NCBI GenBank assembly: GCA_963782525.1
Contig: CAWAKC010000009.1
Span: 176,727-240,726 of the forward strand
Direction of reading: 5' to 3'
DNA length: 64,000 bases
Source: Candidatus Bathyarchaeota archaeon
Lineage (GTDB): Archaea > Thermoproteota > Bathyarchaeia > Bathyarchaeales > Bathycorpusculaceae
Under the pieces are notes generated by a model. It was not told the DNA's origin. It made no database searches and was given only the letters and a program-made list of their open reading frames with translations. A program made the position numbers and the translations under genes. Positions within the stretch are counted from its first letter, which is position 1. Every line of letters starts with the position of its first letter. Positions 10,582-54,150 of this stretch are shown here, piece after piece.

Positions 10582-10813
10582 ACTTTTGATACTATAAGAA
10601 TACTCAAAGAAGAAATGAAAAAGCGCCAATCAGATAATTTGTGTGAATTATTACCCAAAATCTTAGTAAATTTATTAATTTCTAGATTTCGTGTGAGTTT
10701 TTATGGGTGAGTTGGTTGGTGGTTGGCGGTAGGTGGGAGGGCGTTGGTCAGAAAGTTTGTTTTTTGCGAATTGATTATGCTAGTACCTTTAATGGGGCAA
10801 ACTTGTAAGAGAA

Positions 10814-11077
10814 GTTGTTGTTGCTGCTGCAACTGTATTCTGCGCACCGGTTGCAACAACAATCAAAGATAAACCCAAATTGCCAAGTTTACTTTTACTG
10901 AATCACAAGTCAGACCATAGAAGATGATTGTGGTGATGATGATGCAAACCAATTTTGTTCTCAACAGTATCATCAATCAAACCAATGTCCGATTGCGCTG
11001 CTCACTGACTTGTTTGGTGATAATTGTCTGCTGGCGACCTATGGCAATCGAGAATTGCTGCTGCATGCTTGATTTTC
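10814..11077 (+). repeat. Array of about 7 abutting imperfect inverted repeats (hairpin array A)
   Basis: Examples: gttgttgttgc 10814-24 / gcaacaacaat 10853-63; atcacaa/ttgtggt; tgatgatg/tatcatca; atcaaac/gtttggt; attgtc/ggcaat; gagaattg/tgattttc. Confidence 0.7.
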
Positions 11078-28548: not shown

Positions 28549-28581
28549 CTAAATTTTTTCTCCTATGTGTTGTTTGCTTAC

Positions 28582-28630
28582 GGTTCAGTCCCGAAGGACC
28601 ACATCCCAACGGACTATGGTGTCCGCCTGC
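28582..28630 (-). promoter_or_regulatory. Structured 5' leader of the rpl15e operon (putative eL15 autoregulatory leader)
   Basis: Sense strand GCGGAC-ACCAUA-GUCCGU hairpin, then GGGAUGU-GGUCC-UUCG-GGACU-GAACC. BRE/TATA-like GAAAGGTTTATT at 28659-28670. Confidence 0.65.
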
Positions 28631-50401: not shown

Positions 50402-50809
50402 ATGAAGAAAGTCTTGTTTGTCTGTGTTGAGAACGCTGGCAGAAGTCAGATGGCTGAAGCATTTGCCAAGAAATATGGAGAAGACAAGTTTATCGTTTCC
50501 AGCGCTGGCAATAAACCAGCAGACAAAGTAAACGCAGTTGTAATTGAGGTTATGAAAGAAAAAGGCATCGACATTTCAATGAACAAGCCAAAGCTGATAT
50601 CGGCAAAGATTGCAATGGACTCAGATTTGATAGTCACCATGGGATGTAACGACCAAGGAGTCTGCCCAGGACCCTTCTTTAAACCCACAATCGACTGGAC
50701 GCTGGAAGACCCAAAGGGAAAACCCATAGAAAAAGTCAGAGAAATCCGAGATGAAATTGAACACAAGGTAAAACAGCTGATAACTCAACAAACAGATGTT
50801 GAGACATAG
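50402..50809 (+). CDS. arsC: Arsenate reductase ArsC (LMW-PTP family)
   Basis: FVCVENAGRSQMAE, MGC...CP, W.LEDP. Confidence 0.92.
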   Translation: MKKVLFVCVENAGRSQMAEAFAKKYGEDKFIVSSAGNKPADKVNAVVIEVMKEKGIDISMNKPKLISAKIAMDSDLIVTMGCNDQGVCPGPFFKPTIDWTLEDPKGKPIEKVREIRDEIEHKVKQLITQQTDVET

Positions 50810-50915
50810 TTTTTGTTCAGGCTATTTTTAATTTTAATCAACCGAGCCTGGATTACCGCGCCGCGGTAATGTATTTATCACTAAAGGCAATTTAACTAAC
50901 GAGAAGCCGATTTGT

Positions 50916-51030
50916 GCAGGGGTCGCCGAGCATGGTCAAAGGCGTAGAGCTGTACTTTAATGTACTGCGCGCATGCTTCAGGAGCCTATCCTTCAGAGGT
51001 TCGTGGGTTCAAATCCCACCCCCTGCACCA
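50916..51030 (+). tRNA. tRNA-Leu(CAG) with 27-nt intron at non-canonical position 29/30 (50948-50974); CCA encoded
   Basis: Acceptor GCAGGGG/CCCCTGC; spliced anticodon arm TAGGC-TTCAGGA-GCCTA; long variable arm; T arm GTGGG-TTCAAAT-CCCAC; bulge-helix-bulge at the intron ends. Confidence 0.95.
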
Positions 51031-51046
51031 TAACATTATTCAGTTT

Positions 51047-51293
51047 TCAAAGAAGCTTATTGAATTCATCGACTGATAAGTCAACTTCTCTAATTATAGT
51101 GCGCAGCATTCCTTTTCCAAGAGGCTTGTGGGCAGGGATAACAACCATTGTCTCGTTTTTCCTACAGCCAAATAAAGAAACATATTTCTGTTGGTCAATA
51201 AGCCGCATGACGATGTGGCTACCTTTCTGGTTGTTGACGGCGTAGCCGATGTTCACGAGAGCCTTTAATAACGATGTCATAGTCAAGAGACAT
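51047..51293 (-). CDS. hicA: HicA-family toxin (possible +1 indel near 51264)
   Basis: KALVNIGY...QKGSHIVM...VVIPAH..LGKGMLRTIIRE. ATG 51293 gives MSLDYDIVIK in the adjacent frame. Confidence 0.85.
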
Positions 51294-51297
51294 TAAT

Positions 51298-51501
51298 TTA
51301 GACACTGACTTGCACCGTTTCAATAGGAACGGGGTCGCCATGTTCCTTTAACGCTTCAATATAAGCCTGTATTGCTTCCTTGATATTTTTCATAAGTTCC
51401 GCCCGTGTTTTTCCTTCGGTAGCACAACCAGGCAGGTCAGGAACTTTAGCGACAAGGACGCCGTCTTCATCCTTTTCAATTATCGCTCTGTATTTGAGCA
51501 T
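51298..51501 (-). CDS. hicB: Short HicB-family antitoxin (no DNA-binding domain)
   Basis: IEKDEDG...VPDLPGCATEGKT..E...NIKEAI...E. Confidence 0.92.
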   Translation of the reverse strand: MLKYRAIIEKDEDGVLVAKVPDLPGCATEGKTRAELMKNIKEAIQAYIEALKEHGDPVPIETVQVSV

Positions 51502-51557
51502 ATGTTTGCATAGAGCTTTGGAAATTCTTAAGCTTTCCCTTTTGTTTGTGTGTATGT

Positions 51558-51595
51558 TTCAGAGGTTCGTGGGTTCAAATCCCACCCCTGCACCA
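51558..51595 (+). repeat. Duplicate of tRNA-Leu 3' end (att site)
   Basis: TTCAGAGGTTCGTGGGTTCAAATCCCACCCCTGCACCA. Confidence 0.92.
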
Positions 51596-51619
51596 AATTA
51601 ATTGGGTAAATACATTAAT

Positions 51620-52149
51620 TTGAGAAGAAGAAAAACAGTTATGTCCTACGGGAAAGCGTTCTTCTTCTTTCAAAAACTATTTTGACCCTTGAGCGACAAA
51701 AAGAAGAAGACATTGACTTGCATACAGATTTGTCTTCTTTCAAAGAGAGGAAGAAAAAATCGACAATTTTCGGGAAAAACTGGTTTTTTCTTCTTTCAAT
51801 CAGAACTATTGGACAAAAAACAACAAGATCTCAATTCCACAAAAAGAAAGTGTTGTTGTTTACCAACTTTATTCAATCTTAACGACAGATATTCACTCAA
51901 GTAGAAGAAGAGCAAATTTTCCAACTTTCTTCTTCTTTTAACAGTGAAGGCAGAAGAACAACAACAAACCAATTTTTGCAACTGCTGTTGTTCTACACTA
52001 ATAATAGCAACCCACCATTAAGTGAAGATAGACCAAAATAGGTAAAGCTATCTAAAAAATAGCAAAAAACTTACCACATCTCTTAGATCATGCGAAATAG
52101 ATGTCTGATGTACGAGCGATTTGAATAAGAACACATAGATCAATTCAAA
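51620..52149 (+). repeat. Array of about 9 tandem inverted repeats (hairpin array B)
   Basis: gaagaagaa/ttcttcttc, gaagaagaca/tgtcttcttt, ggaagaaaaaatcg/tggttttttcttct, aaacaacaa/ttgttgttt, agaagaagag/ttcttcttct, agaacaaca/tgttgttct, agatag/ctatct, acatct/agatgt, tttgaat/attcaaa. Confidence 0.75.
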
Positions 52150-52335
52150 AGATGAAAGCCAGGTTCAATTTTGTAGCCGTTTTACCATATGAAGAAAAAA
52201 CATTCTTCCTAATTGAGAGAATTTGTTGACTCCGATTGACCGCCAAAAAAAGCCGAGAAATCGCTGAATTTCTCAATTTATTTATATTATTTAGACATTT
52301 CTCCAACGTGCCGTTTATATCCAACCCCACAATGC

Positions 52336-54150
52336 GTGAGTAATGGAGAAGGAAAAACAGTGAAGTCTCCGAAAACTTCTCGCGAGTTTGATTATCTGAG
52401 AAAATGGGTTCCGATAGCTCTTTTAATCGGTGCCGTCAGCGGAGCGGGAAGTATTTTTTTCTATGAAGCAATCAAGCTCTCAAGCACATTTCTGTTAGGT
52501 GACTTAGGGGGCTTTTTTCCTCCTTCGCCAGTCGGAGAAGGCGGAAGCTTGGGAGTACTCTCTTCTCATGTCTATGTGATCCCATTGATAACTACTGTTG
52601 GAGGACTTTTGTGCGGTATTCTTGTTTATGGTTTAGCGCCAGAAGCAGAGGGTCACGGGACTGATGCAGCAATAGATGCTTTTCACAATAAAAAAGGGGA
52701 GATACGGTCTAGAATTCCCTTGGTTAAGCTTGTGGCTTCAGCTATAACGATTGGCTCTGGAGGAAGCGCAGGCAGAGAGGGTCCAACAGCGCAGATAGGG
52801 GCGGGCTTCGGTTCCTTTCTGGGCAGGAAGCTTCACCTTAGCTTAAAAGATAGAAGAATTGCAGTTGCAGTCGGAATAGGAGCGGGAATAGGTTCTATTT
52901 TCAAGGCACCGTTCGGCGGGGCTATTCTAAGCACTGAGATTCTATACATGGGAGACTTTGAGGTAGAGGCGTTGCTCCCAGCGTTCATAGCCTCAACGGT
53001 TGGATATAGTATTTTCGCTTCGTATACTGGGTGGACACCCGTTTTTGGTTACCTGAATCTTGGTGCTTTCAGTGACCCGATTAATCTGCCCTTTTACGCT
53101 GTCTTAGGGATACTTTGTGGTTTAGTAGGCATCGTATATGTCAAGGGCTTCTACGGTACACGGGATCTTTTTCAGCGTCTAAAAATACCGCGGTTCTTGA
53201 AGCCAGCCTTGGGCGGATTGTTAGTTGGTATTATTGGAATGTTTCTTCCACAAGTGCTCGGCATGGGGTATGGTTGGCTTCAGATTGCGATGAGCGGCAA
53301 TTTTGTCTTACTTCCAATTATTTTGATTCCGCTAATAGCAGTGGTCAAAATAGTTGCTACATCAATAACGGTGGGTTCAGGTGGCAGTGGAGGGGTCTTT
53401 GCACCAGCCTTGGTTATAGGAGGCTTGCTGGGCGCATCGCTTTGGATATTGTTAGACGGGATTTTTCCGAACTTTGGCCCTGTCATAGCGGCTTTTATCA
53501 TAGTGGGGATGATGGCGTTTTTTGGAGGTGTAGGTAAGGTTCCAGTCGCCGTCATACTCATGGTTAGCGAGATGACTGGAGGATTCACTTTGCTGGTTCC
53601 TTCAATGATAGCCACAACCATCGCATACGTAATCACTGGAAAGATTACAATCTATAGAAGTCAGGTTCCATCAAGAGCTGAATCGCCAGCCCATAGAGGT
53701 GAATACTCAACTACTCTCCTGCAGAAACTCTTCATCAAGGATGCAATGACCAAAAAACTCATTACAATTACCCCCAATTCAAAGGTTTCAGAAGTCGCTG
53801 AGACCTTGTCAAAGAACGGAATAAAAGGAGTGCCCGTCTTAGATGATGACGGCAGAATCGTGGGTATAGTCACGCTTACAGATGTTCTTCAGCTTCACCC
53901 AGACCAGAGAGCTACAACTAAGGTGGGCTCAATAATGACCAAAGAAATCATAACAGCGAATCCTGATGATACTCTTTATACTGCATTTGATAAAATGACC
54001 AATAACCAGATCGGACGCCTTCTAGTTGTGGAATCACGCAGAAGCTCGAAGCTAATGGGTATAATTACGCGAGAAGACGTGTGGCGAGTCTACAACATAG
54101 AAATAAGGTCAAAACTAGAAGATGTTAAACTTTCAGGAAGCATCGAATAA
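52336..54150 (+). CDS. ClC chloride channel / Cl-/H+ antiporter with CBS pair
   Basis: GHGTD, GSAGREGP, GGVFAP, EMTG, C-terminal CBS domains. Confidence 0.93.
   Translation: MSNGEGKTVKSPKTSREFDYLRKWVPIALLIGAVSGAGSIFFYEAIKLSSTFLLGDLGGFFPPSPVGEGGSLGVLSSHVYVIPLITTVGGLLCGILVYGLAPEAEGHGTDAAIDAFHNKKGEIRSRIPLVKLVASAITIGSGGSAGREGPTAQIGAGFGSFLGRKLHLSLKDRRIAVAVGIGAGIGSIFKAPFGGAILSTEILYMGDFEVEALLPAFIASTVGYSIFASYTGWTPVFGYLNLGAFSDPINLPFYAVLGILCGLVGIVYVKGFYGTRDLFQRLKIPRFLKPALGGLLVGIIGMFLPQVLGMGYGWLQIAMSGNFVLLPIILIPLIAVVKIVATSITVGSGGSGGVFAPALVIGGLLGASLWILLDGIFPNFGPVIAAFIIVGMMAFFGGVGKVPVAVILMVSEMTGGFTLLVPSMIATTIAYVITGKITIYRSQVPSRAESPAHRGEYSTTLLQKLFIKDAMTKKLITITPNSKVSEVAETLSKNGIKGVPVLDDDGRIVGIVTLTDVLQLHPDQRATTKVGSIMTKEIITANPDDTLYTAFDKMTNNQIGRLLVVESRRSSKLMGIITREDVWRVYNIEIRSKLEDVKLSGSIE

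Follow-up and report, generated by a model that had tools for sequence, protein, structure and literature searches.

Array B, a series of stem-loops in the 64,000-nucleotide stretch of archaeal DNA analysed here (the window), is one copy, with six modules, of a mosaic palindrome family that is dispersed and genus-wide in a soil Bathyarchaeia (Bathy-6-like) lineage. The array belongs to this family, the family behaves as DNA, one of its module types is the insertion target of an IS110 element, and the palindromes have a counterpart in a viral gene. We consider it probable that array B is best explained as such a dispersed DNA palindrome repeat, targeted by IS110 and built from provirus-related modules.

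The six strong hairpins of array B are real. Between positions 51620 and 52000 we found six non-overlapping perfect stems of at least 9 bp, whereas 1000 dinucleotide shuffles averaged 0.23 and never gave more than 2. Folding energy was a much weaker test than this stem count. Folded as RNA, the whole array reached z scores of −2.65 (+ strand) and −3.91 (− strand), and single hairpins folded as ssDNA had energies of −5.5 to −8.0 kcal/mol with z scores of −1.25 to −1.89, i.e., 8–23 of 200 shuffles folded equally well. The initial annotation had proposed folding against shuffles as a check: energies were nearly matched by the shuffles, whereas the perfect-stem count and the conservation across the family clearly were not. 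It had also counted nine tandem stem-loops. Six of these are the strong stems, found within a few bases of where it had placed them, but the last three are weak and lie outside the family (Table 1). The AATT motifs it had seen in the loops are present. It had further placed G-T pairs mainly on the + strand; however, the only stem irregularities are an A/G in H4 and an A/C in H6, whose stem extends to 12 bp with this one mismatch, and it is the − strand that folds better.

Table 1 Features of array B and its surroundings. Positions are those of the window; C numbers denote contigs of the assembly.
Feature	Position	Strand	Description
Array A	10760..11030		Belongs to a second family, related to that of array B, whose stems are (GTT)n(GCT)n and (GAT)n; nhmmer
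tRNA-Tyr (GTA) with intron	50916..51030	+	ARAGORN allowing introns, C9:227642-227756
HicA toxin	51047-51286	−	Pfam HicA_toxin, E 5.6e-10; between the two tRNA-end repeats
HicB antitoxin	51298-51501	−	Pfam HicB_lk_antitox, E 2.4e-12; between the two tRNA-end repeats
att repeat	51558..51588	+	Identical over 31 nt to the 3′ end of tRNA-Tyr; two copies only in the window
Array B	51621..52046		Complete family copy, six palindromic modules and tail, ~430 bp; nhmmer profile match C9:228348-228722, 295.6 bits
Module H1	51623..51668		(GAA)n stem, perfect 10 bp, 51623-32/51659-68; 26-nt loop
Module H2	51704..51739		GAAGACA stem, perfect 9 bp, 51704-12/51731-39; 18-nt loop
Module H3	51750..51793		GAAGAAAAAA stem, perfect 10 bp, 51750-59/51784-93; 24-nt loop
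Module H4	51818..51861		(CAA)n stem, perfect 9 bp, 51818-26/51853-61; 26-nt loop
Module H5	51903..51936		(GAA)n stem, perfect 9 bp, 51903-11/51928-36; loop GCAAATTTTCCAACTT
Module H6	51955..51994		(CAA)n stem, perfect 9 bp, 51955-63/51986-94; AATTTTT loop
Conserved tail	51995..52046		3′ of H6 in several copies; alignment with the C1 copy
Three weak stem-loops	52026..52149		Outside the family; 5-7 bp stems; z −3.37, −0.31, −3.11
Chloride-channel gene	52336..54150	+	Voltage_CLC and CBS (Pfam); downstream of array B

Array B as the single query retrieved 20 places in the genome, and two profile rounds gave 63 and then 84 matches, which merged into 39 loci. These loci contain 119 of the 134 perfect hairpins of GAA or CAA type, in a genome with 2129 perfect hairpins of all kinds. 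Twelve copies could be aligned module by module; the linkers H3–H4, H4–H5 and H5–H6 are conserved, and modules are present or absent. In this alignment array B is collinear with C11:25261-25649, C1:217662-218003 and C7:325486-325812. The array had been described as conserved in structure and variable in sequence, of which the second half holds only in part, since each module type is conserved in sequence between copies. The H1 type with its cctac(a/g)g loop recurs at C1:217687 and C8:83974, H2 at C7:325570, C3:34212 and C10:38323, H3 at C11:25396 and C3:376072, and H4 at C11:25461 and C2:50104. The tail (C9:228685-228772) is 84% identical over 89 nt to C1:219232-219319 and was also found at the orthologous C1 site in three other genomes (G010, G023, G001); the 3′ arm of the first weak stem is missing from the C1 copy of the tail.

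Modules of the family are perfect inverted repeats of 9–14 bp with loops of 13–29 nt. Their arms are triplet runs that are free of stops in any frame, i.e., (GAA)n/(TTC)n, (CAA)n/(TTG)n or, in rare cases, (GTA)n/(TAC)n, and on average 4.52 of six frames are open, compared with 2.76 in intergenic and 3.41 in coding windows; stops are thus strongly depleted. The purine-rich arm comes first in 79 of 100 hairpins and the pyrimidine-rich arm in 10. Stop-codon depletion and purine-first polarity could reflect a function outside the present account. By crude ORF calls, which were the gene calls used for context, 35 of the 39 loci lie outside ORFs, and two of the other four are spurious ORFs running through arrays. 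Array B as a coding sequence was ruled out: the four overlapping or adjacent ORFs of 61–71 aa in its region gave nothing in Pfam even at an E-value limit of 0.1, in agreement with the earlier view that no ORF there is credible, and the indels between orthologues are not multiples of three.

Of 24 other genomes in the genus, 14 contained matches to the family; among 16 genomes from other families one matched, weakly. In the genomes sampled, the arrays are hence essentially limited to one genus. A scan of 185,579 species with the CAA-palindrome pattern returned at least 105 stretches; among the 80 listed, 72 were labelled Bathyarchaeota or Bathyarchaeia and 4 'uncultured archaeon', and 99 of those 105 stretches were homologous to the array profile. 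We found no description of these arrays in the literature covered, supplements excepted.

The H6 module type is the insertion target of an IS110 element (Pfam DEDD_Tnp_IS110 and Transposase_20). Of five closely related copies of this element, four interrupt a CAA-type palindrome at one fixed position, GAACA^CAACAA, and the fifth is inserted at a similar word; two distant copies have other targets. The CAA-type arm is a specific landing site of an IS110-family element. IS110 elements are described as inserting into REP elements, with 144 of 173 IS621 insertions located in REPs (PMC11208160). The relation between IS110 and the arrays is the archaeal counterpart of this relation between IS621 and REPs, which underlies bridge-RNA recombination.

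Pattern matches in the IMG/VR collection fitted the array profile in 17 of 18 cases. The 17 that were inspected shared one conserved context, with an ORF call of a 147–152 aa gene in two records (L202, L213). Profile searches with stems of this kind can catch chance (GAA)n hairpins, as 15 of 18 GAA-pattern matches in IMG/VR were unrelated. In Bathyarchaeia proviruses, the viral palindrome is read in frame as part of the inter-domain linker encoded by a gene here called the terS (small-terminase) candidate, which is located just upstream of the large terminase gene (PHROG 2, E 3.4e-5; Pfam Terminase_6N in the G000 copy). A perfect inverted repeat of 7–14 bp was found in the linker of 12 of 15 terS-candidate homologues with 32–56% identity, and in 11 of the 15 it exceeded in length every repeat in control windows taken from that gene. 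The stems covary, i.e., their sequence differs between homologues at a linker position that is the same down to 32% identity, which looks like long residence or function and not like repeated random insertion. So constrained is this DNA palindrome that the protein carries complementary runs (EEE...SSS, QQQ...CCC, VVV...TTT). In five provirus records the palindrome is the only array-like match, and in two near-complete proviruses it is the longest perfect inverted repeat.

Among 78 array-module loops, 16 were more like a viral loop than were 95 of 100 shuffles, and these included the loops of H5 and H6 in array B. In array B the loop comparison covered H3 to H6: the H6 loop resembled terS-candidate loops with a score reached by 1 of 100 shuffles, the H5 loop resembled the flipped loop of a GAA-type viral palindrome (L246; 4 of 100 shuffles), and for H3 and H4 the scores against the sampled viral loops were not significant (54 and 48 of 100 shuffles). 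Descent of whole arrays from terS-candidate coding sequence was unsupported, as three gene DNA queries hit a single array locus, a solo hairpin. Given this result and the H3 and H4 scores, homology between array and virus comprises about 40–60 nt per module, much of it of low complexity. Modules of the H5 and H6 kind would be copies of the palindrome that is kept in frame in the provirus linker gene upstream of the large terminase. As they match a palindrome kept by head-tailed proviruses, the proviruses are the likely source of the modules, and we infer that the direction of descent was from virus to chromosome.

In-frame modules of the family likewise encode low-complexity linkers in the genes at C6:13641-14111, C1:166273-166705 and C1:446600-446983 and in a D5-type primase-helicase gene (C1:83453-85942). 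Unlike these, array B is intergenic. The hairpin in the terS-candidate paralogue C1:446600-446983 is of the family of array A, which had 27 nhmmer matches, or 42 after one profile round. Array A itself lies between the genes for fibrillarin and RNase HII (Pfam). The word CAAACCAATTTT, which the initial annotation had named as common to arrays A and B, is indeed exact at 10945 and 51965, but as a word it is not significant: with at most one mismatch it has 4 matches, a count reached by 7 of 100 shuffles.

The viral gene raises an alternative that we judge unlikely, namely that a viral packaging signal is present in the arrays as functional copies and that the terS-candidate palindrome is a putative pac or terminase-binding site. 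Arrays recognised by viral terminases could cause neighbouring host genes to be packaged and transferred, or could act as decoys. Pac sites lie inside the terS genes of phages P22 and SPP1. A covarying, single-copy palindrome inside the gene beside the large terminase would be consistent with such a signal, as would the predicted protein, which has a bundle of three helices at its N terminus, a long helix at its C terminus and a disordered linker that coincides exactly with the part encoded by the palindrome. The arrays, moreover, mix GAA, CAA and GTA types and, within a variable region, border on conserved blocks. However, the terS-candidate protein matched no Pfam or PHROG family, a sequence search of the PDB gave homeodomains at best (E 0.044), and the best Foldseek match had E 0.084, with solved small terminases at E 0.8–1.9; it is the position of the gene that suggests a small terminase. 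Binding or cutting of the palindrome by a terminase is purely putative. In the arrays, the loops, where specificity would be expected to reside, change faster than neutral DNA, and they flip. Finally, the terS-candidate family is wider than the arrays, reaching other genera and a further family (f7). A related-locus search with one viral protein gave 15 loci in close relatives only.

A variant of this idea, which we hold to be rather improbable, views the arrays as chromosomal collections of pac-like palindromes that stem from several co-circulating proviral terS-candidate alleles and are recognised or cut by terminase. In that case, packaging would move array-bounded host gene blocks from cell to cell or, alternatively, incoming cut viral ends would be captured at arrays and thereby add modules. 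The variant would explain the position at block edges, the mixed stem types, the limitation of the arrays to the host range of a single virus group and a locus downstream of tRNA-Tyr in the relative G023, where three tandem terS-candidate fragments carry GTA, GAA and CAA palindromes. If the arrays were recognised by the same viral machinery, virus packaging would be tied to the shuffling of host gene blocks. The terS-candidate palindrome is in any case a concrete candidate for a packaging signal, the first for head-tailed viruses of archaea.

Returning to the reading as a dispersed DNA repeat, we examined how the arrays change. In 51 oriented loci with 148 purine-first hairpins, 108 of them perfect, the 1788 stem positions held 8 mismatches of G-T type, 13 of A-C type and 24 others, i.e., there was no G-T excess on either strand. 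Between the orthologous arrays of G000 and G010, stems were 90% identical, loops 64–68% and linkers 57–86%, compared with 86–88% for other intergenic DNA and 92.5% for genes; array loops hence change faster than ordinary intergenic DNA. Loops also occur in both orientations in the same linker context: the H5 loop of array B is the reverse complement of the C11, C1, C2 and C4 loops, with the same flanks. Module number varied at one orthologous site from 0 (G012) through 2 (G001) and 4 (G023) to 6 (G010 and G000). The two-module form can be read as the six-module form with deletions between like arms. The flanks of the empty site were too diverged to place its ends, and filled-versus-empty comparison at six loci gave no site with precise ends. 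Arrays are kept at orthologous sites between species that are about 90% identical, and are therefore not recent insertions.

These observations show that the family behaves as DNA and not as an RNA gene. Pure Watson-Crick stems, fast loops and variable module number fit a DNA-level, REP/BIME-like repeat rather than an RNA gene, an attC site or an origin. The arms stay Watson-Crick-perfect and the loops flip and get swapped, and we propose that modules are gained and lost by recombination or slippage between near-identical arms of neighbouring or distant modules. Module gain and loss and loop flips would make the arrays fast-evolving spots, often where gene order differs between species. In one 20-kb region, synteny breaks fell into five of five array-bearing and none of four array-free intergenic regions; one apparent break proved spurious, having arisen from the E-value cut-off. 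Within a variable region of 30 kb, single genes are bordered by arrays.

The adjoining genes and the array ends did not reveal a mechanism of spread. There is no RAYT-like gene beside the arrays, and terminal inverted repeats as in MITEs were not found, with two complete copies scoring 9 and 8, within shuffles (maxima 12 and 11); the end-to-end local score of array B was 14, with a shuffle maximum of 12. A link to RAYT or IS200 was rejected: none of the three Y1_Tnp matches in the genome, whose flanks carry other hairpins, lies within an array locus.

We regard it as quite improbable that the modules act in RNA, as bidirectional terminators, 3′-end stabilisers or a processed small-RNA array, the last having been proposed in the initial annotation. 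Read on either strand, every module gives a hairpin whose 3′ arm is rich in U and C, the purine-first polarity would agree with such a role, and whole-array RNA folds better than shuffles on both strands. By crude ORF calls, arrays abut gene 3′ ends and not 5′ ends (6 versus 0 within 30 nt; 15 of 43 3′ ends versus 5 of 35 5′ ends within 100 nt), and convergent gaps are slightly enriched, with 10 of 35 intergenic loci compared with about 19% of intergenic bases. However, seven loci lie in divergent promoter gaps, and array B lies upstream of its neighbouring gene. Six consecutive hairpins exceed the needs of termination. An RNA role is further opposed by the stems, which have no G-U-compatible mismatch excess and no strand-specific covariation tolerant of G-U, and by loops of either orientation. 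No Rfam model matched at its gathering score, and below it matches were at chance level (best RefA1, 25.9 of 94 bits; plastid UTRs; SNORD43). Four complete copies, compared by eye, share no motif upstream of H1.

Array B begins 27 nt past the att repeat, which is the exact copy of the tRNA-Tyr 3′ end that the initial annotation had recognised; the tRNA itself was recovered by an intron-aware ARAGORN run, the default run having missed every tRNA in the window. This position, two further arrays that follow tRNA genes (C1:576501, C7:325486) and the single genes flanked by arrays would suit the earlier proposal of attC-like sites of an integron platform, or of a replication or transfer origin of an island at tRNA-Tyr, but we take it to be highly improbable and largely refuted: RYYYAAC and GTTRRRY have no occurrence on either strand of 51595-52160; the stems are perfect and without extrahelical bases; the flanked genes face both ways and some are of ordinary housekeeping type; the 10 tyrosine-recombinase (Phage_integrase) matches all lie apart from the array loci, the closest (C8:86292-86813) about 2 kb from the array at C8:83950-84161; a unique origin is excluded by 39 loci per genome; and array B is accompanied by tRNA-Tyr, HicAB and a chloride channel in place of the initiator or relaxase genes expected at an origin.

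Between the two att copies, the island amounts to no more than a 566-bp HicAB cassette. In the closest relative seen, G023, the orthologous array still lies upstream of the chloride-channel gene, with another upstream neighbour and away from tRNA-Tyr. An association of the arrays with tRNA genes was rejected, as 2 of 39 loci directly follow a tRNA, in addition to array B behind a tRNA fragment, and by informal estimate this count is about what is expected with both confined to intergenic DNA. The att repeat beside array B would be either coincidental or a remnant of an older island. Of the original interpretation, a real series of non-coding DNA hairpins with links to mobile DNA stands; the tie to the att site and island, to which array B would have been specific, falls, as it is one of 39 dispersed loci. 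For annotation, the arrays should be masked as repeats and not be called small-RNA genes or att-linked sites.

With the dispersed palindrome repeat as the preferred reading, uncultivated soil Bathyarchaeia gain a described REP/BIME-like repeat family and an IS110 element that targets it, and the repeat modules have a counterpart that is kept inside a viral gene. Like REP/BIME elements of Proteobacteria, the arrays consist of short palindromes in many intergenic copies, form mosaic clusters with conserved linkers, vary between close relatives and are a specific insertion target of an IS110-family element. Unlike the GC-rich REP stems, array stems are A/T-rich triplet runs with the purine arm first. 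Six module types occur in a preferred order, whereas BIMEs have two or three units in alternating orientation; array modules are symmetric palindromes, and orientation does not alternate within a cluster. The arrays lack an associated RAYT-type transposase, their modules are also found in frame in mobile-element genes, and their host is an archaeon. Generic REP-like palindromes have been reported in archaea, and the passages of that report covered here do not describe the present family (PMC12306157).

Three further systems share single traits with the family. Tolerance of palindromic repeats in frame inside protein genes is known from Rickettsia palindromic elements (RPEs), and modules of the array family likewise lie in frame, depleted in stops, in the terS-candidate gene, its paralogues and the D5-type primase-helicase gene. 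Unlike RPEs, the in-gene palindrome keeps to one linker position across distant homologues, and array B is intergenic. As in the pac sites of P22 and SPP1, the viral palindrome is unique, lies in a small gene upstream of the large terminase and differs between alleles; in contrast to those phages, the terS-candidate identity comes from gene position only, and known pac sites have not been reported to form arrays of several types scattered over host chromosomes. In chloroplast non-coding DNA, hairpin loops undergo minute inversions between short inverted repeats, and in bacteria template switching occurs at quasi-palindromes. In the same manner, array loops are found in both orientations with unchanged arms and without G-T intermediates. 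However, those are mutational phenomena of single loci, whereas the arrays form a dispersed, modular family.

Sequence reading (window 50800-52900) and a scan for perfect inverted repeats confirmed six stem-loops in array B where the initial annotation had placed them. All six stems are perfect and 9-10 bp long, with loops of 16-26 nt. In window 51620-52000, six non-overlapping perfect stems of at least 9 bp stand against a mean of 0.23 and a maximum of 2 in 1000 dinucleotide-preserving shuffles, and this count is decisive. Folding energy discriminated poorly because the sequence is of low complexity, i.e., the whole region folded as RNA gave z-scores of -2.65 (+ strand) and -3.91 (- strand), and single hairpins as ssDNA reached only -5.5 to -8.0 kcal/mol (z -1.25 to -1.89). 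Three weaker stems (52026-52149), previously taken as further units, have 5-7 bp, are not repeated elsewhere and lie within or past the conserved tail; one is no better than shuffles. The proposed preference of G-T pairs for the + strand was not borne out, and the 12-mer common to arrays A and B is not significant as a word. We agree that array B holds no credible ORF, its short ORFs being without family match.

Location of array B, its neighbours and the complete copies of its family (C, contigs of the studied genome G000)
Feature	Location	Remarks
tRNA-Tyr gene with intron	window 50916-51030	upstream of array B
HicA/HicB pair		upstream of array B, after tRNA-Tyr; - strand
att repeat, exact 31-nt copy of tRNA-Tyr 3' end	window 51558-51588	
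Array B, complete family-B copy	window 51621-52046	
Chloride-channel gene		downstream of array B
Complete family-B copy	C11:25261-25649	
Complete family-B copy	C1:217662-218003	
Complete family-B copy	C7:325486-325812	without H4
Single-copy IS110-family element (L135, L190)	C1:218002-219231	inside module H6

Array B belongs to a dispersed family. Scanning the whole 2.87-Mb assembly for hairpins revealed many more clusters of (GAA)n and (CAA)n hairpins with recognizable loop types. With array B as nhmmer query we obtained 20 places, and two profile rounds gave 63 and then 84 hits, which merged into 39 loci; 119 of the 134 perfect GAA/CAA-type hairpins of the genome fall within them. Twelve copies could be aligned module by module, their linkers being conserved, and we therefore define the complete element as modules H1-H6 followed by a tail (about 55 nt). 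The complete copies have no terminal inverted repeats in common. Array A (window 10760-11030), with the fibrillarin and RNase HII genes on either side, represents a second, related family (27-42 nhmmer hits). Of the family-B loci, 18 occupy tandem gaps, 10 convergent and 7 divergent ones, about in proportion to intergenic bases; crude ORF calls place the loci nearer to the 3' than to the 5' ends of genes.

Among 24 other genomes from the genus, 14 contain family B (1-23 matches apiece), and one of 16 genomes from other families of the order matches weakly. The exact CAA-palindrome pattern was found in at least 105 stretches when one genome per species was searched (185,579 species), 99 of the 105 being homologous to the array profile. 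Among the 80 matches listed, 72 were labeled Bathyarchaeota/Bathyarchaeia (some 'Bathy6'), four 'uncultured archaeon' and four as bacteria; the six stretches without homology include three of these four. One contig binned as the bacterium Limnocylindrales (L099, DATHCJ010000062.1) has array homology of 41 bits and may be a mis-binned Bathyarchaeia contig. Our literature search found no description of these arrays. Modular DNA palindromes of the array-B kind form a new family that spans the genus.

A processed small-RNA array had been among the suggestions for array B. Rfam gave no match over array B at gathering score; at this threshold the window has a single match, to the eL15-Euryarchaeota ribosomal-protein leader (28577-28625, - strand), here in a Bathyarchaeia genome. 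Among 100 hairpins in family-B loci, the purine arm comes first in 79, the pyrimidine arm in 10, and 11 are mixed; this polarity is uninformative on the sense strand because a perfect palindrome reads alike on both strands. Stem mismatches were counted in 51 loci oriented by profile, with 148 purine-first hairpins and 1788 stem positions. Perfect stems were found in 108 hairpins, and the 45 mismatches comprised 8 of G-T type, 13 of A-C type and 24 others. RNA under single-strand selection would be expected to have an excess of G-U-compatible changes on that strand, and these positions show none.

Association with att sites is not a property of the family, as array B is one of 39 dispersed loci and a tRNA gene directly precedes only two of them. 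Within the window the tRNA-Tyr 3' end recurs only as the att repeat, and comparable copies elsewhere in the genome were not found. A toxin-antitoxin cassette of 566 bp makes up the att-bounded island, and array B starts 27 nt past it. The HicA/HicB mini-island (window 51031-51552) has neither other genes nor an integrase and is flanked on both sides by exact 31-nt tRNA-Tyr 3'-end copies; related HicAB DNA (75-80% identity) is found at other places in the relatives G001 and G007. The DNA that follows tRNA-Tyr was viewed at five loci from four relatives and was different at each. Among six relatives viewed, the chloride-channel orthologue has an array upstream in G023 only, with a different gene as upstream neighbor. 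The tRNA-Tyr genes of G010, G001 (two copies) and G012 lack the intron present in G000 and G023 (L166-L170) but are nearly identical apart from it. The array after tRNA-Arg(GCG) has a terminal fragment resembling a tRNA 3' half (T arm, acceptor strand, CCA; C1:576846-576881), which is no copy of that tRNA-Arg. Immediately before one family-B module and a copy of family A lies a tRNA-like minihelix not called by ARAGORN (C1:324369-324430), with a 10-bp acceptor-like stem around T-arm-like GGTTCGAATC.

The remaining suggestions are not supported: attC core words are missing from both strands of the array B region, none of the tyrosine-recombinase matches adjoins a family-B locus (the closest lies some 2 kb away from the C8 array), and 39 loci exclude a unique origin. 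The three IS200-type Y1 transposase (HUH) genes have their own, different hairpins.

Orthologous arrays of G000 and G010 are 90% identical in stems, 64-68% in loops and 57-86% in linkers, compared with 86-88% in other intergenic DNA at array loci and 92.5% in genes; loops hence change faster than neutral DNA. In one array the entire loop was exchanged while the arms stayed unchanged, and the H5 loop is found in both orientations in the same linker context. At one orthologous intergenic site the number of modules is 0 in G012, 2 in G001, 4 in G023 and 6 in both G010 and G000; the two-module form can be read as the six-module form after deletions between like arms. Palindromic DNA leaves such marks when it recombines, slips and is corrected on itself. 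Array B is fast-evolving, recombination-prone non-coding DNA.

A stretch of about 30 kb (C3:361-392 kb) is variable: 11 array loci lie there among unrelated single genes, and the blocks conserved with G023 and G010 terminate at arrays. In a 20-kb piece (L132), block ends fell in 5/5 array-bearing versus 0/4 array-free intergenic regions, cases that are not independent as they come from a single region. An apparent synteny break outside this piece was a cut-off artefact. Genes of this plasticity zone (C3:361000-392500; L132, L133) encode beta-propeller surface proteins, catalase, glycogen-branching enzyme and glycosyltransferase, and the zone is mostly not conserved in G010 or G023.

The CAA-palindrome pattern also matched 18 IMG/VR stretches. 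Seventeen of them match the array profile, and the 17 that were read have one conserved context in common. ORF calls on two (L202, L213) placed it within an ORF of 147-152 aa whose end overlaps the start of a large terminase (PHROG 2, E 3.4e-5, 94-aa fragment). We term this gene the terS-candidate; family and fold searches gave no naming match for its protein, so 'small terminase' is deduced from gene position. The viral CAA palindrome encodes KEQQQ...CCCS in frame. The G000 homologue (C6:13641-14111), followed by a Terminase_6N protein, has a GAA-type palindrome at the same place (KEEE...SSSS), and C1:166273-166705 a GTA-type one (EVVD...TTTS). About 22 kb beyond the C6 gene pair (C6:13641-15516) lies a tyrosine integrase next to tRNA-Pro (C6:36704-37445), and the region is a probable head-tailed provirus.

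We aligned 15 homologues that share 32-56% identity with the first; their sources are IMG/VR and several genera, with two families of the order represented. Twelve of the 15 carry a perfect inverted repeat in the linker (7-14 bp), which in 11 exceeds the length of every repeat in control windows from the same gene. Stem types vary among homologues (GAA, CAA, GTA, GTT, others), which results in complementary runs in the peptide. The linker palindrome is the sole array-like match in five provirus records and the longest perfect inverted repeat in two near-complete proviruses (35.6 and 37.7 kb). An AlphaFold model (mean pLDDT 77) has an N-terminal three-helix bundle and a long C-terminal helix; residues 55-70, exactly the palindrome-encoded part, are disordered.

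Sixteen of 78 array-module loops surpassed 95 of 100 shuffles in similarity to a viral loop (about 4 expected), mostly H5- and H6-kind modules including those of array B. Of the array B modules compared (H3-H6), the H3 and H4 loops were not significant. Whole terS-candidate genes as DNA queries matched just one array locus; the common unit is therefore the palindrome with about 10-15 nt per side. Family modules are strikingly free of stop codons, with 4.52 of six frames open (3.92 with shuffled loops; coding windows 3.41, intergenic windows 2.76), and inter-module linkers are stop-rich (2.88; linker-length intergenic windows 3.54). Downstream of tRNA-Tyr in G023 (L167, G023:C15:8300-11400, positions 752-1437), three tandem, partly overlapping terS-candidate fragments with GTA, GAA and CAA palindromes each comprise the end of the N domain, the palindrome and the start of the C domain, which looks like an array in the making. 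Array B modules H5 and H6, at least, are relatives of the conserved palindrome in this provirus packaging-gene neighbor. The boldest reading still allowed would make the arrays pac-like sites that couple viral packaging to host gene-block exchange.

Family-A stems are of (GTT)n(GCT)n and (GAT)n type; several copies are located next to family-B loci or to fragments of terS-candidates, and one lies in frame within a terS-candidate paralogue (C1:446600-446983). A D5_N/DUF5906 primase-helicase gene of an integrated element (C1:83453-85942, L219) has an in-frame GAA-type family palindrome (EEEVLVHQSSSS), which precedes a Cys/His-rich C-terminal module at a mosaic-segment boundary; homology to the G023 and G012 copies breaks at this palindrome.

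A gene with DEDD_Tnp_IS110 and Transposase_20 domains adjoins the C1 array. This element is a 1.23-kb insertion that breaks module H6 at GAACA^CAACAA and is missing from the orthologous site in G010, G023 and G001. Of the genus copies with locatable ends, five are close (76-100% identity, one of them interrupted by stop codons): four share precisely this target position within a CAA-type palindrome, and the fifth is inserted at AGACA^CAACAAAC. Two more distant copies (70-72% identity) use other targets. The transposase of the G000 element starts about 45 nt from one end. The other end is non-coding for about 200 nt and by eye holds the words AGAAC and CAACAACA, which match both target halves in a guide-RNA-like manner. 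Array B is an IS110 landing site.

The family is best compared with REP/BIME repeats, and IS110 in CAA-type palindromes mirrors IS621 in REP elements of E. coli (PMC11208160).
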